DNA from: Candidatus Spongiisociaceae bacterium
GTDB taxonomy: Bacteria > Actinomycetota > Acidimicrobiia > Spongiisociales > Spongiisociaceae
DNA: 64,000 nucleotides
Assembly: GCA_965262915.1 (NCBI GenBank)
Contig: OZ253564.1
Location: 544,001 to 608,000, forward strand
Direction of reading: 5' to 3'
The position numbers were made by a program, and so were the translations under genes. This document shows, piece by piece, positions 1 through 4,334 of this stretch. Within the stretch, counting starts at the first letter, position 1. Each line of letters begins with the position of its first letter. The notes under the pieces were generated by a model. That model was given only the letters and a program-made list of their open reading frames with translations, was not told where the DNA came from and ran no database searches.

Positions 1-2
1 TG

Positions 3-695
3 GCCTGTGGCGACAGCGGCAAGGTGCTGGCGATGATCCCGGGCCGTACGAAAGGGTCGCTGGCCAGGTTCTTTAGGGATCAAGGACCCCAGTGGTGCCG
101 GCAGGTGGAGATAGTCGTGAGCGACGGGTCCCGCTCATATCAGGCCGCAATCGCACAGTATCTGCCAGCTGCTCGCCATGTGCTCGACCGGTTCCACGTC
201 GTACGCTGGTTCACCCAAGGCCTCACTCTGGTACGCAGAGAGCTGCAGCGCCGCGACCCCCACCGGCGTCCCCCAACGTTCGAGCCGGATCTGTCCCGAG
301 CCCGCTTCACCCTCCTGCGCCGGGCCGATCACCTAACCGAAGCCCACCAGGCGCACCTCGACAGACTGTTCGATGCTCATCCCCGTCTCCGCACCGCGTG
401 GGACGCTCTCCAAGAGCTCTACCAGCTATATCAGGCAGACGACCTCGACGGGGCCAACCAGGCGCTCGGACGGTTCGCCGACCTCTACGCCACCGGCCAG
501 ATACCCCAATACCACCAAGTCGTGGACACCATCATCGCATGGGGAGAACAGATCTTGGCCTACCACACCACCCAACGACGGGTATCCAACGGACCCCCCG
601 AAGGGATCAACAACCTCCACCAAGTCCTACGACGCGTCGCCCACGGCTTCACCAACTACGACAACTACGCCGCCCGAGGAATCCTCGTAACATGA
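3..695 (+). CDS. ISL3-family transposase (5' part outside window)
   Basis: Motifs VVSDGSRSY, HVLDRFHV, SNGPPEGINN, AHGFTNYDNY. Confidence 0.9.
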   Translation, partial: ACGDSGKVLAMIPGRTKGSLARFFRDQGPQWCRQVEIVVSDGSRSYQAAIAQYLPAARHVLDRFHVVRWFTQGLTLVRRELQRRDPHRRPPTFEPDLSRARFTLLRRADHLTEAHQAHLDRLFDAHPRLRTAWDALQELYQLYQADDLDGANQALGRFADLYATGQIPQYHQVVDTIIAWGEQILAYHTTQRRVSNGPPEGINNLHQVLRRVAHGFTNYDNYAARGILVT

Positions 696-736
696 CCCCA
701 CACCGAGCGCCAGCACAGCCAAAACCCACGATGCTC

Positions 737-1969
737 CTATGTTTTGCAAATCGGTTGTTGGGTGAGCCAGTGTTGGTATCGGGTAGCGAGGTGGTGGTTG
801 TGGTGGAGGCCTCGTTCGAGTTGTGATAGGACGGTGGGCTGCGTGTCGAGGTGGTGGGCGGCGCGGGTGAGGGTGATTCGGGCTTGGGTTCGGCGGTGGC
901 GTAGGTCGGTTCCGTGGGGTGTTGGGGGCGGGTCGGTGAGGAGGTGGTATATCTCGCGGGCGATGTGGCGTTTCAGGCAGCGGATTATTTCGGTGTGGGT
1001 TTTTCCTTCCGCTTCGCGTCTGGTGACATATTCTTTGGTGGCAGCGTCGGTGCGCATTCGGTTGGTAGCGATCCGCCATAGCGCGTTGTTTGCTTGGCGG
1101 TTGCCGCCTCGGTTGAGACGGTGCCGCACTATCCGTCCCGATGATGCGGCTACGGGGCTGACACCGCAGAGGGCCGCGAAGGCTGCTTCTGAGTTCATAC
1201 GTCGTGGGTTGTCACCAGCAGCGACCAGCAGAGCAGCGGCGGTGTCGGGTCCTACTCCGTAGGCGGCCAGCAACGCAGGGTTGGCCCGTGCGCAGAGACC
1301 GCGGATCTGTTTGTCGACCTGTGTGATCTCGGTGTCTAGATTCTGGTATCGGCGGGCTAGAAGCCGCAGTGCCCGCTTGGCGTATGCCGCAGTGGTCTGC
1401 GCTGTGCCCGGACGGAAGCGGGCACAGACCTTGACCTGTGTCCGGGTCGGGAGATCCCGGAGTTGGTGTTTGACCTGCTCAGGAGCGGTTACTACCAGAG
1501 CGTGCAGCTGGTTGGCGGCCTGGGTGCGGGCTTTGACCGCGGAGCGGCGAACTACCCGCAGCATCCTGGTGGCTTCTACCGGTCCGTCGCCCGTCTTGGG
1601 TAGGGCGGTCGCTTCACCGTTGAGAGCAGCCCGGGCTGCTGCTTCGGCGTCGGTGGTGTCATCCTTGCCCCGCCGCCGGCGAAGCTGGCGGTTGGGACGG
1701 TTCACCTCCACCACACCGATACCCGCCTCGGCAAGATGACGTGTGAGCCCAGCGCCGTAGCTGCCCGTTCCTTCCACCCCGACCCGTGTGATCCGACCCC
1801 ACGACTCCATCCAGGCGACCAGTTGGGCATAACCGGAGGTATCAGCGCCGAACTGATCGGATCCCAACAGGCGACCCGCGCCATCCACCACCGCCCCAAC
1901 GTGGAAATCCCGATGTGTGTCCACCCCGCCAACCACACCTACCCCATCGGCCCTAACTTGCTCCGCCAT
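737..1969 (-). CDS. IS110-family DEDD recombinase with C-terminal XRE-like HTH extension
   Basis: GVDTH, VGVEGTGSYG, GKDDTTDAEAAARA, ASSG, RHRLNRGGNRQAN; AAAGG upstream of ATG 1969. Confidence 0.93.
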   Translation of the reverse strand: MAEQVRADGVGVVGGVDTHRDFHVGAVVDGAGRLLGSDQFGADTSGYAQLVAWMESWGRITRVGVEGTGSYGAGLTRHLAEAGIGVVEVNRPNRQLRRRRGKDDTTDAEAAARAALNGEATALPKTGDGPVEATRMLRVVRRSAVKARTQAANQLHALVVTAPEQVKHQLRDLPTRTQVKVCARFRPGTAQTTAAYAKRALRLLARRYQNLDTEITQVDKQIRGLCARANPALLAAYGVGPDTAAALLVAAGDNPRRMNSEAAFAALCGVSPVAASSGRIVRHRLNRGGNRQANNALWRIATNRMRTDAATKEYVTRREAEGKTHTEIIRCLKRHIAREIYHLLTDPPPTPHGTDLRHRRTQARITLTRAAHHLDTQPTVLSQLERGLHHNHHLATRYQHWLTQQPICKT

Positions 1970-2019
1970 GTGCTCGCCTTTCGTCGGCTGCCTAGAATCC
2001 AACCCCCGGAGCCGGGCAG

Positions 2020-2170
2020 AGCGGCGGACAGAACACTCACGGTGGAGAAGTCGAAGGCTCCTATCAAGTCACCCCGCTCCCCGGTTCAGGGTTCCTAGCC
2101 GGGGCCAGGTCGACAGATCGTGGGAAAGGCACCAAAGGCCAGTTTTCGCGTGAGTCAGACCCGGCCCCAA
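2020..2170 (-). ncRNA. IS110 bridge RNA (target-binding loop, then donor-binding loop); ends approximate
   Basis: Minus-strand segments CGCGAAAA (2143-2150) and CCCACGAT (2117-2124) match the insertion site; ATAGGAGC (2057-2064) and GAGTGT (2033-2038) match the element ends. Confidence 0.8.
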
Positions 2171-2218
2171 CCGGAAACCCTATAAGTATGAGTGTTTTCG
2201 CGCAGCCTCAGAAGGTTT

Positions 2219-2551
2219 CTACGGGAGCGGTTCGATGTCCTCCACCTCGTACCGGCCGTACTGTCCCGATTTTTCGGGTCGCCAGTCCCCAACCCCGACC
2301 CGGCGTCCCCCAATGTCCAACCATCGCAGCAGCTGGTCGCGGTCTACGAGTTCGGGGTCTACCTCGACGAGGATCGTGGCTGCCCACTGGTCGAACCGGG
2401 CCCGGGTACGCAACAGACGGCTCCCCCCGACTCTCACCCCGGTGGTGAACTGGCAGCTGCGGGCCAGCTCCTCGGCGGTGGTGCCCGGGCTCCGGTCGTG
2501 GTGGAAGCGCTCCACTGCTTCCACCACCAGCCCTTCCCGAACTTTGGGGCC
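2219..2551 (-). pseudogene. 5'-truncated RAMP/Cas7-like protein of phage type
   Basis: C-terminal RTRARFDQW...GGRRVGVGDWRPEKSGQYGRYEV glycine-rich loop; the upstream part of the ORF does not look protein-like. Confidence 0.6.
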
Positions 2552-3104
2552 GTGCCGCAACCCCCAAGGAGAGGGACGCCGCCTCATGAGGGCTGTGCCG
2601 CAGCTGCGTGTGCCAGTCACAAGGCGAAACTGAACACAGCCTCCCTCCACTACCAGCCGGAACGCCCACCGAGAGACAAAGCACGACGGATCAGAGCAAA
2701 AGCCATCCCACAAATCAGCGACGAACTCGCCCGAGCTGGCGGAACCGTCGAAGGCATGGGAACCCATCAACGCCAAAGACCGCCGACAACCCGTCCCCGA
2801 ACGTGGCATCACCCACACGTCGGCTTAAAACCAGGCTCGGGAAGAACCTCCGATACGGGACGGGTACCGGTCCGCCCGCGGCTTCCTAGCGTAGGAGGTC
2901 TGTACTCCCTCGAGTTCTGCACTCCCGGCGTCCTCGAGGAGATCGGTCGTGTGCCGATATTGGGTGACCACGAGGTCGGCCGCAACAGCGATACTGCCCA
3001 CCGAGATCAGGGCTACGTTCTCAGCGAACCATCAACGGCGAGACCTCAACCCGTTCGATATGCGGTGTCAAACACAAGATGCGTGCGCAGGAGCCGCTGC
3101 GTCA

Positions 3105-4334
3105 TCATTCGAGAGCGGCGGCCCACCGGGACAGATGATCCAACGGAATCCGGACATTGCCGGGTATTCGTCTCCGAGCCCTGGTGGCTCGCGCCTCGTC
3201 CTCGCGCATTGCATCCCGTAACTGTGAACTCTCGTTCTCTTCCGATAGCTGCATTTCCCATGCGCGTGCGAGAGCGAAGTGCCGTTTCAATTGGTGATAG
3301 TCAAGCTCGTTGGGGCGTCTAGCGCCCCCGCCGCACACACTACACTCACACGCAAACGCTCGGTCCACTTCCACCAACGAGGTGGCTGCAGCTGTTGGCA
3401 TATAAGCGTGCAGCTTCCGCACATAATATCGAGCAGGTGCAGCACCAGTAGCATCTAGTGTCGGCCAGTCTCGTGACTCGCTATATCCCAATCCGTTATT
3501 AAACCCAGCTAGCCCAACCTTACCCAAGAGTATGCTGAAGTATCCACCGTAGAGGTTCATAAGTTTACGGTTCCCACTCAGTACAGATATCGTCGCTCTA
3601 AGTGAACGAAGATCAGCTACAGACCTCGTACGCTCATCGAATCCTGGTACCCAGAAGAAGATCCTGGAGGAGAGATGATCTGGGACGCAGAGAATTGCTT
3701 CTTCAAGCATCGACAACTCGGTGATCGCAACGACAGGTGAGATTTCATTTGGACGATCAAGACGTTGAGCTGAAGCCCAGAGCCGTTGTGTCACCTCCCA
3801 CCAATCGCTTGATCTGGTTCTAGCCGCGAAGTACGGGCACAACAAGTATGTCGGGCTCTTCGCATCGCTTTCGGATTCCACGTTGCCAGACCCACCTTGG
3901 GCACGATCTAACAGGGACTTATAGCGGTTCAACTTCTCAGCTATATGTTCGGCTCTACCACCGTAGTCGCGTTGAAAGCTGATCATCGATGAGACTACTT
4001 CGTCGCATACGTCAGAGGAATAAAACTCGGCCGGGAACCGGACGCCCTGACCTTCTTGCTCTGACGGTCGACCGAGTCTCTCTACCACCGATTGACCCAT
4101 CGTAGATGCAAGGGTGTAGTGTGAGGCACGCGGATCTCTGATAACCTCCTGGAAGAGAGGGGTTCGCGGCTCAATGAAGTAGTCAAGTCCTGACGACAGC
4201 ACGAAGCCCGCAGTCGCGTCCTGATAATACGAAGCGATCGTAGACGGAACACTCATCACGTCAAAGCAGCGTCGGACTTCTAGATTACGAAAACTAGCTT
4301 GATCTGAGTTCCCGTAGGCGAGGCAATGGAGCAT
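3105..4334 (-). CDS. Uncharacterised 409-aa protein, TGT/queuine-tRNA-ribosyltransferase-like with C-terminal CxCxxC...H Zn site
   Basis: FACECSVC...LKRHF motif; alternating alpha/beta pattern; start overlaps the upstream stop (TGATG). Confidence 0.6.
   Translation of the reverse strand: MLHCLAYGNSDQASFRNLEVRRCFDVMSVPSTIASYYQDATAGFVLSSGLDYFIEPRTPLFQEVIRDPRASHYTLASTMGQSVVERLGRPSEQEGQGVRFPAEFYSSDVCDEVVSSMISFQRDYGGRAEHIAEKLNRYKSLLDRAQGGSGNVESESDAKSPTYLLCPYFAARTRSSDWWEVTQRLWASAQRLDRPNEISPVVAITELSMLEEAILCVPDHLSSRIFFWVPGFDERTRSVADLRSLRATISVLSGNRKLMNLYGGYFSILLGKVGLAGFNNGLGYSESRDWPTLDATGAAPARYYVRKLHAYMPTAAATSLVEVDRAFACECSVCGGGARRPNELDYHQLKRHFALARAWEMQLSEENESSQLRDAMREDEARATRARRRIPGNVRIPLDHLSRWAAALE

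Follow-up and report, generated by a model that had tools for sequence, protein, structure and literature searches.

An IS110-family element in the end repeat of an ISL3 element of a Candidatus Spongiisociaceae bacterium, and the putative bridge RNA that matches both

The locus

The window analyzed here is a stretch of 64,000 nucleotides (G000:C1:544001-608000; contig OZ253564.1 of assembly GCA_965262915.1) from a Candidatus Spongiisociaceae genome that consists of a single contig of 5.06 Mb with 64% G+C. Its left margin holds the right part of an insertion sequence (IS) of the ISL3 family, and the right terminal inverted repeat of that ISL3 is split, 15 nt from its tip, by a second insertion sequence that belongs to the IS110 family. 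We consider it very probable that this IS110 element carries a bridge RNA that can be decoded from its letters, with guides that would read the ISL3 end repeat and the element's own ends, and a recombinase that would join the two at a single C. The features on which the argument stands are the following.

1-730, plus strand: right part of the host ISL3, with the C-terminus of its transposase (3-695) and the inner right end repeat; the complement of CGTGGG lies at 725-730.
731-2194, minus strand: IS110-family element, a net insertion of 1464 bp (CACTC...GGAGCAT), drawn from its junctions, from empty sites, from an identical second copy and from two 98% copies.
737-1969, minus strand: recombinase open reading frame (ORF) of 410 amino acids (aa), with the ATG at 1969 and the stop codon TAG at 739-737, within the end motif ATAGGAGC.
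2195-2209, plus strand: outer 15 nt of the ISL3 right end repeat, severed by the IS110 element, as seen in comparison with uninterrupted ISL3 ends.
2210-2217, plus strand: 8-bp target duplication of the ISL3, AGAAGGTT; the second copy directly flanks the ISL3 on its left, beyond the window margin.

The C at 2194 is common to target and element, and thus the boundary of the element can be drawn one base either way. An earlier sequence-only reading of this DNA had placed the IS110 at 725-2207, an interval that does contain the element but extends 13 nt into the ISL3 tip and 6 nt into the inner ISL3 repeat; the tip runs on to 2209.

The host element has the features of an ISL3. The ORF at 3-695 (plus strand) matches Pfam DDE_Tnp_ISL3 (E-value 1.5e-52), and the ISL3 body, at genome positions 543405-544731, has an open frame of 408 aa. 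When the IS110 copies are removed, its ends read GGCCCTGCGCGAAAACGTGGGTT and GAGGCTGCGCGAAAACGTGGGTT, with AGAAGGTT on both sides. The usual length of an ISL3 duplication is 8 bp, and the presence of AGAAGGTT on both sides indicates that the ISL3 inserted normally and that the IS110 struck later.

The recombinase and its family

Residues 16-160 of the recombinase match Pfam PF01548 (DEDD_Tnp_IS110, the N-terminal DEDD RuvC-like domain; E-value 7.1e-24), and its C-terminal Tnp domain matches PF02371 (Transposase_20; E-value 7.5e-19). A search of solved structures with the recombinase as a single sequence returned nothing relevant, the top matches being peroxisomal enzymes with an E-value of about 0.002. 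A profile built from 15 relatives does match the IS621 transposase 8wt6_A (E-value 1.8e-24) and the ISCro4 transposase (E-value 3.2e-24). In the profile alignment, the D, E, D, D and SG motifs are aligned with those of IS621 (GVDTH/GIDTA, VEGTG/IEATG and KxDxxDA/KTDTVDA), and S277-G278, invariant in the 15 sequences, is aligned with the SG of IS621; the aligned motifs were matched by eye to the catalytic residues named in the available text of PMC11208158. The C-terminal ~65 aa (window 740-935, minus strand) have a weak match to HTH_31 (E-value 8e-4, 20.1 bits, under the Pfam cut-off of 27 bits), and precomputed HTH_31 or HTH_3 labels are found on some of the homologues.

The left end of the element is non-coding, 225 nt long, and carries the guides described below, and the right end extends only 6 nt past the stop codon. 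The IS1111 group is recognized by subterminal inverted repeats of 7-17 bp and by a guide RNA in a long right end; the only symmetry of the window element is a short imperfect TAGGAG/CTCATA, and its long end is the left one. On these features of the sequence, we assign window positions 731-2194 to the IS110 group, as an insertion sequence with a predicted DEDD/Ser recombinase.

Junctions, empty sites and the target

On the minus strand, the left junction reads CGCGAAAA|CACTC at 2195/2194 and the right junction ATAGGAGCA|TCGTGGG at 732/731, both as quoted in the sequence-only reading. What these junctions imply depends on what the site looked like before the insertion, and the genome has many such sites. 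Uninterrupted ISL3-type tips read GCGCG-N5-GTGGG in 17/17 clear cases in the genome; the 15-mer GCGCGAAAACGTGGG of such a tip occurs 3 times, and the 16-mer GCGCGAAAATCGTGGG occurs 0 times. The two flanks of the insertion together thus hold one base more than such a tip, which makes the T in front of CGTGGG part of the IS110. In 30/30 family copies, the right flank begins with TC irrespective of the target. Empty sites of four other target classes, for example ACTGAAATCCGATGAG (12/13 hits), CCGGGAAACCCGGGGC and the ISL3-internal GTGAAATCCTTGG and CGTAACATGAC, require a net insertion CACTC...GGAGCAT before a C. Dinucleotide cores CA and TC were tried against the empty sites and rejected.

Read in this way, the target is GGCTGCGCGAAAA-C-GTGGG, and the joined donor would be ATAGGAGCAT-C-ACTCAT (…ATAGGAGCAT-C-ACTCATAC…). 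The only base common to donor and target at the crossover is this C, in all classes, so the proposal of a single shared core nucleotide holds, with C in the place of the A that had been proposed. The base before the shared C is T in the donor and A, C or T in the targets, and donor and target differ there in 5/7 classes.

We also compared window positions 500-2500 with assembled contigs of four public runs, which contained no circle junction and no empty form of exactly this ISL3; the 24 public runs listed are all available as assembled contigs, which cannot show rare forms, so this result carries no weight against a circle. A contig of run X5 joins 699 to 2193 via 30 other letters, which is the uninterrupted end of a variant ISL3 (…GAAAACATGGG…), again with the shorter spacing.

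Copies of the element

A BLAST search finds a 100% identical IS110 copy at genome positions 541931-543413, in inverted orientation, in the left end repeat of the same ISL3. Both ends of the window ISL3 are thus split, each 15 nt from the tip (copies A and B). Two more copies, 98-99% identical, lie in the left ends of other ISL3 copies that are 84% and 95% identical to the first (copies C and D). The mapping of other copies, which the sequence-only reading had suggested as a check, therefore places 4/4 copies (at least 98% identity) in ISL3 end repeats, distributed over three different ISL3 copies, one of which is occupied at both ends. The flanks are CTGCGCG[A/G]AAA and TCGTGGGTT in every case, with the IS110 left end toward the ISL3 tip.

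The site is also used outside this genome. In a genome of the same genus (G002), two elements with 77% DNA identity carry the same guides (CGCGAAAAC and CCCAC) and occupy the same site, GGCTTCGCGAAAAC|...|CGTGGG, which brings 2/2 same-guide elements to the four above; one of the two adjoins the C-terminus of an ISL3 transposase, and a third G002 copy lies at a near-cognate site. It is a reasonable inference that splitting both end repeats leaves the window ISL3 immobile, and ISL3 ends, being present in many copies, may serve the IS110 as harmless landing sites.

Guides and their covariation with targets

The left end has four segments that we read as guides.

2142-2150, minus strand: putative left target guide CGCGAAAAC, in the same sense as the left arm of the target plus the shared C, matching the left flank at 9/9 positions.
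2117-2124, minus strand: putative right target guide CCCAC, then a G opposite the shared C, then AU; the reverse complement, ATCGTGGG, is the right junction.
2057-2064, minus strand: putative left donor guide ATAGGAGC, which equals the right end of the element.
2032-2039, minus strand: putative right donor guide UGAGUG plus UU; the reverse complement, AACACTCA, is the left junction.

The guide strings as originally proposed, CGCGAAAA (2150-2143), CCCACGAT (2124-2117), ATAGGAGC (2064-2057) and GAGTGT (2038-2033), are all present on the minus strand upstream of the recombinase ORF (ATG 1969), in the canonical order of left target guide (LTG), right target guide (RTG), left donor guide (LDG) and right donor guide (RDG). 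Taken one by one, the four guide matches came up in 39, 100, 40 and 36 of 5000 shuffles of the left end; no shuffle had all four. The AU after the RTG occupies handshake-type positions and matches the last two bases of the donor (AT), and the UU after the RDG matches the last two left-arm bases (AA) of the target. Since the AU of a constant GAU lies opposite the AT of the donor, CCCACGAT matches the right junction over 8 nt and the true target over 6.

One element by itself can only provide matches, and it is the rest of the family that provides covariation. A tblastn search finds about 31 family copies in the genome, at ~70-100% protein identity, with common ends CACTCAT...[A/G]TAGGAGCAT and seven target classes. 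We aligned their left ends, of which 21 are distinct. The 5' part of the scaffold reads GGGTCTGAC[C/T]C[A/C], a variable 9-mer plus T, a small hairpin, GCCTT[T/A], and a variable 5-mer plus GAT; the 3' part reads CTGTCG, a linker, [A/G]TAGGAGC[C/T]T, a loop, GAGTG plus 2-3 variable bases, and TGTCC.

We observe that the variable 9-mer equals the element's own left flank, 9/9, in 7/7 classes, with at most 8 matches for non-cognate pairs. The 5-mer plus G is the reverse complement of the element's own right flank over at least 6 nt in 7/7 classes, with at most 4 for non-cognate pairs; the N5 part of this right guide varies with the right flank in 7/7 classes, and GAT stays constant. Classes with the right end GTAGGAGC carry GTAGGAGC, with the same G, in the left donor guide too. 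In the right donor guide, the base that follows GAGUG is complementary to the target base immediately before the shared C in 5/7 classes (A, C, A, C, A), and the pairing fails in the two classes with a T there. Relatives in other Acidimicrobiia metagenome-assembled genomes (MAGs) obey the guide-flank rule with 0-1 mismatches. An unpublished genome, G028, entered one tally only, and no claim depends on it. The 9/9 left match and the covariation in 7/7 classes bear out the proposal that the guides are aimed at the ISL3 terminal repeat.

The seven classes differ in what they target. Class g1, that of the window element, hits the ISL3 end repeat. Classes g4 and g8 use two positions within this ISL3 family, one ~33 nt in from the left end and the other at the stop codon of the transposase. 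Class g2 (16 copies) is found at the end of another ISL3-family element, whose DDE_Tnp_ISL3 transposase has 445 aa. Hence 4/7 classes are on elements of the ISL3 family, and the remaining three are located next to an IS21-type element, next to a remnant of an IS110, and within a short hairpin repeat.

RNA structure and circle promoter

The left-end alignment and folds delimit the candidate RNA, and the computed circle junction adds a possible promoter.

2012-2177, minus strand: bridge-RNA-like region of the left end; its ends are approximate.
744-749, minus strand: -35-like hexamer TTGCAA, in the right end.
2185-2190, minus strand: -10-like hexamer CATACT, in the left end, a layout as in IS621.

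RNAalifold, run on 14 sequences, recovers a target-binding loop with an outer stem of 12 pairs, at one of which three pair types occur. The left guide is on the 5' side of this loop and the right guide on the 3' side, with an inner hairpin stem of 3 bp between them. When the donor guides are held unpaired, a closing stem forms in 12/12 distinct sequences (GAGCGG/CCGCUC and GAC/GUC in the window copy). Folding the left end, another check that had been suggested, therefore gives the target loop outright and the donor loop only under that constraint.

The circle promoter had been described as TTGCAA-N16-CATACT. Both hexamers are present (749-744 and 2190-2185), and their spacing on the computed circle junction is 17. 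The pattern TTG[AC][AC][AC]-N17-CATA[ACG]T is found in 25/25 copies with both ends located, as TTGACA or TTGCAA and CATAAT or CATACT. By analogy with IS621, the RNA may be transcribed from a promoter rebuilt on the circular form, TTGCAA-N17-CATACT.

The proposed mechanism and what weighs against it

In the mechanism that we propose, the ~225-nt left end would encode a bridge RNA with two internal loops. With CGCGAAAAC and CCCAC-G-AU, the target loop would recognize the two strands of the ISL3 end repeat, at GCGCGAAAA-C-GTGGG; with ATAGGAGC and UGAGUG plus UU, the donor loop would recognize the element's own joined ends, ATAGGAGCAT-C-ACTCAT. The DEDD/Ser recombinase would then join donor and target at the shared C, and the product would be an element 15 nt inside the ISL3 tip with its left end always toward the tip. 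By analogy with IS621, cleavage would fall after the shared C, and handshake pairing would be provided by the two bases 3' of each right guide. At the level of the genome sequence, the element and its family, the guide-flank matches with their covariation, the site specificity and the sequence of the empty sites are shown.

Several observations weigh against this proposal. The RNA, the circle and the activity of the window element are predicted from sequence. Unconstrained RNAalifold on the 14 sequences did not recover the donor loop, as the guide segments pair with their neighbours, and an Rfam 15 search of window positions 1-4000, which include the left end, gave no match at an E-value of at most 1. 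Copy D lies at a site with one mismatch to the left guide, and in copies C and D the donor loop is broken by another insertion, so that neither has a full bridge RNA of its own. The left donor guide matches 8 nt only, followed by a mismatch two positions before the shared C, in all classes. The left target guide (window positions 2141-2150 for g1) comes in two registers: the 9-mer ends on the shared C in g1, g3, g4 and g8, and one base before it in g2, g5 and g6, where the next U could wobble-pair opposite the C. Finally, an element with g2 guides lies at an unrelated site (genome 3663666-3664868), between CCCAAAGAACCC and CACCGCCG, with neither guide matched; it may be an off-target or a rearranged copy.

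A scaffold T/C difference (GACUCA vs. GACCCA) was considered as a marker of the two registers, but it does not track them: the relatives in G002 have GACCCA and yet use the register of g1.

Alternative explanations

The sequence-only reading placed the recombination at a shared A, with the target GGCTGCGCGAAAATCGTGGG, the donor ATAGGAGCACACTC and a promoter spacing of 16. The junction strings do permit a shared A if the empty sites are ignored, in which case CCCACGAT and GAGTGT would match target and donor over their whole length. But such a crossover implies uninterrupted ISL3 ends with GAAAATCGTGGG and circle junctions reading GGAGCACACTC, and the genome argues otherwise: the absence of the 16-mer and the 17/17 tips with an N5 spacer make the reconstructed target one base too long, the empty sites of classes g2, g4, g5, g6 and g8 demand CACTC...GGAGCAT before a C, and the TC at the start of 30/30 right flanks assigns the T to the element, which leaves ATAGGAGCAT-C-ACTCAT as the donor. 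We regard a crossover at A as very improbable. Uninterrupted ISL3 ends indeed lack CCCACGATTTTCGCGCAGCC, the ending expected of them on that reconstruction, and this discrepancy arises solely from the one-base error. A different objection is that the sites might be picked by the protein, for instance by the HTH-like tail of ~65 aa that IS621 lacks and for which the weak HTH_31 match and the labels on homologues speak, the guide-like strings being leftovers of ends. Against this, recombinases that are ~70% identical use seven sites, with two short left-end segments changing accordingly, and 77%-identical elements elsewhere keep the segments and keep the site; we give the protein-only explanation hardly any credence. 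It could also be that the association of IS110 with ISL3 came about by duplication of an ISL3 that already had the IS110 inside, rather than by repeated targeting. Copies C and D, with a common nested insertion and the same inner flank, fit such a history, which does not require the copies within a class to be independent. Copies A and B, in the left and right ends of one ISL3, must nevertheless be separate events, the host ISL3s of A/B, C and D are 84-95% identical vs. 98-100% for the IS110 copies, and the same site is used in another genome by 77%-identical elements, so that duplication seems very unlikely to explain the pattern.

An IS110 with a decodable bridge RNA thus remains our preferred explanation, and the alternative that deserves most attention keeps the same element and the same guides, and differs in how the DNA is transferred: only the top strand would be moved, and the second strand would be made by replication. 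Transfer of the top strand alone would tolerate a mismatch between donor and target at the position just before the shared C, where the donor has T and targets can have A or C. The junction record is in agreement. In 22 insertions with a known empty site that differs from the donor (4 in g1, 16 in g2, 1 in g6 and 1 in g8), the left junction keeps the target base; the right junction keeps the donor T in 30/30 copies; and the reciprocal arrangement is found in no copy. This is the arrangement that top-strand joining would produce. IS621 cleaves the top strands after core position 9 and then joins them crosswise (PMC11208158), and top-strand insertion and single-strand copy-out are reported in the available text of two preprints (10.1101/2025.10.25.684509 and 10.64898/2026.08.31.748434). 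On the other hand, an identical pattern would result from a two-strand exchange without a stagger beyond the single C, or from biased mismatch repair; the copies within a class are not all independent events, and selection could remove elements with an altered right end. Top-strand-only transfer is in our judgment a serious possibility, just short of an even chance.

A possible second layer and neighbouring observations

The family itself carries insertions. A second, distantly related IS110-type element (L031:245-1728, G000:C1:3638544-3640027; also at ~4420434-4421949 and 287290-288795) interrupts the left donor guide, at GATAG^GAGCC, in two g1 copies and in one other member of the family. 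Its recombinase (406 aa, PF01548+PF02371) is 26% identical to that of the window element; it has the ends CCTAATGGGGG...CCTGGGGTGTCT and a CT core, and its guide-like segments CCAGGCTCCT and CTGATAGA match the GATAG^GAGCC site. Sister copies with different segments are sited in CACCTGA heptamer repeats. A variant 84% identical to this second element (G000:C1:290123-291612) has inserted at ATAGG^AGCAT, where the first-family copy at 288892-290094 has its right end, a site that is the other copy of the 8-mer ATAGGAGC.

Among the relatives in other Acidimicrobiia MAGs, L003 has at 2929-3294 a 51-nt unit repeated 7.2 times in tandem (99% matches). The unit spans the start of the left end (ACTCAT) through the left target guide, with each unit boundary imitating a left junction; this suggests recombination between a real junction and the guide-coding DNA. 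In L051, from another such MAG, the left target guide TTGACAAAC equals the left flank GATTTGACAAAC and the right flank continues TAGGAGC; the element has apparently inserted into a sibling IS110, at its right end.

The sequence ATAGGAGC doubles as donor guide and right end of the first lineage. One can then imagine, for these Acidimicrobiia genomes, a layered parasitic network whose junctions record naturally how the elements integrate, in which at least seven guide classes of one IS110 lineage within one genome (four of them on ISL3, at two end repeats and two internal sites) are overlaid by a second IS110 aimed at ATAGGAGC, and in which integration proceeds by top-strand transfer or a one-base crossover and not through a matched dinucleotide core. 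We put this forward tentatively and, taken as a whole, we lean somewhat against it.

Next to the host ISL3, a 199-aa ORF without a Pfam match (window 2219-2818, minus strand) ends 1 nt, position 2218, from the ISL3 target duplication at 2210-2217.

Significance

These findings leave the known bridge-RNA mechanism unchanged. What they offer is a natural test set for bridge-RNA rules: a single genome contains 31 related elements with seven sets of guides, and for most of them the empty site is present too. As it lies outside the IS621 clade, the set shows which positions are programmable and which are fixed, and in what way handshake positions track the partner DNA. The one shared base and the top-strand-like junctions bear on whether IS110 elements exchange one strand or two. 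More generally, RNA-guided insertion sequences can specialise on the ends of other insertion sequences and on each other, and this may limit the spread of ISL3 in IS-rich symbiont genomes.

Comparison with known systems

The mechanism is, by its sequence signature, the one known since 2024, and the targeting of another transposon's end repeat would have a precedent in the IS1111 group. In the literature available to us, where supplements such as PMC11208160 Supplementary Data 2 could contain cases, we found no description of an IS110-group element on ISL3 ends.

The element on which the bridge RNA was defined is IS621 of E. coli (Durrant et al. 2024, PMC11208160; Hiraizumi et al. 2024, PMC11208158). 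According to the available text of these papers, its left guides pair with bottom-strand positions 1-9 (7 plus the CT core) and its right guides with the top strand (PMC11208160, PMC11208158); its handshake guides are the two bases 3' of each right guide, which pair with positions 6-7 of the other DNA after exchange (PMC11208158); it cuts the top strands behind position 9, and the cut strands are joined crosswise (PMC11208158); and the circle brings its right-end -35 together with its left-end -10 (PMC11208160, PMC11208158). The window element is alike in having a DEDD RuvC-like domain and a Tnp domain with a catalytic Ser, a long left end and a very short right end, LTG, RTG, LDG and RDG in two predicted internal loops with a nine-base left target guide, two handshake-type bases after the right guides, and -35-like and -10-like hexamers split between the right and left ends, which a circle would join. 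It differs in that IS621 has a CT core in donor and target, whereas the window element has one C and a preceding base that differs (T in the donor; A, C or T in the targets). Its right target guide is 5 nt plus C, compared with the four-base guide of wild-type IS621; its protein has 410 aa with an extra tail, compared with the 328 residues of the solved IS621 chain; and the similarity of the two proteins is detectable only with a profile. The natural target of the window element is the end of an insertion sequence, and that of IS621 is a repetitive extragenic palindromic (REP) element.

For the choice of target, the closest precedent comes from the IS1111 group, where IS4321 and IS5075 reportedly target Tn21-family end repeats, an observation attributed to Partridge and Hall in 2003. 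Here too a DEDD-type insertion sequence homes in one orientation into another transposon's end repeat, and the hyperparasite of the sequence-only reading would have its published precedent in this sister group. The host in that case is a Tn3-family transposon, whereas the host of the window element is an ISL3. In the IS1111 group, moreover, the inverted repeats are subterminal (7-17 bp) and it is the right end that carries the guide RNA (PMC11208160); the RNA of the window element would lie in the left end.

The REP-targeting IS110 members ISPpu9, ISPpu10 and ISPa11 are, as far as the available accounts describe them, alike in their site-specific insertion into a multi-copy, non-essential repeat. 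Unlike theirs, the target of the window element is the functional end of an autonomous insertion sequence, and the insertion plausibly immobilises the host element. Finally, the junctions of the window family resemble the top-strand joining described in the available text of the preprints on CazIS110-1 and cell-free IS621 (10.1101/2025.10.25.684509, 10.64898/2026.08.31.748434); those systems were followed in experiments, whereas the family described here is read from its genomic junctions.

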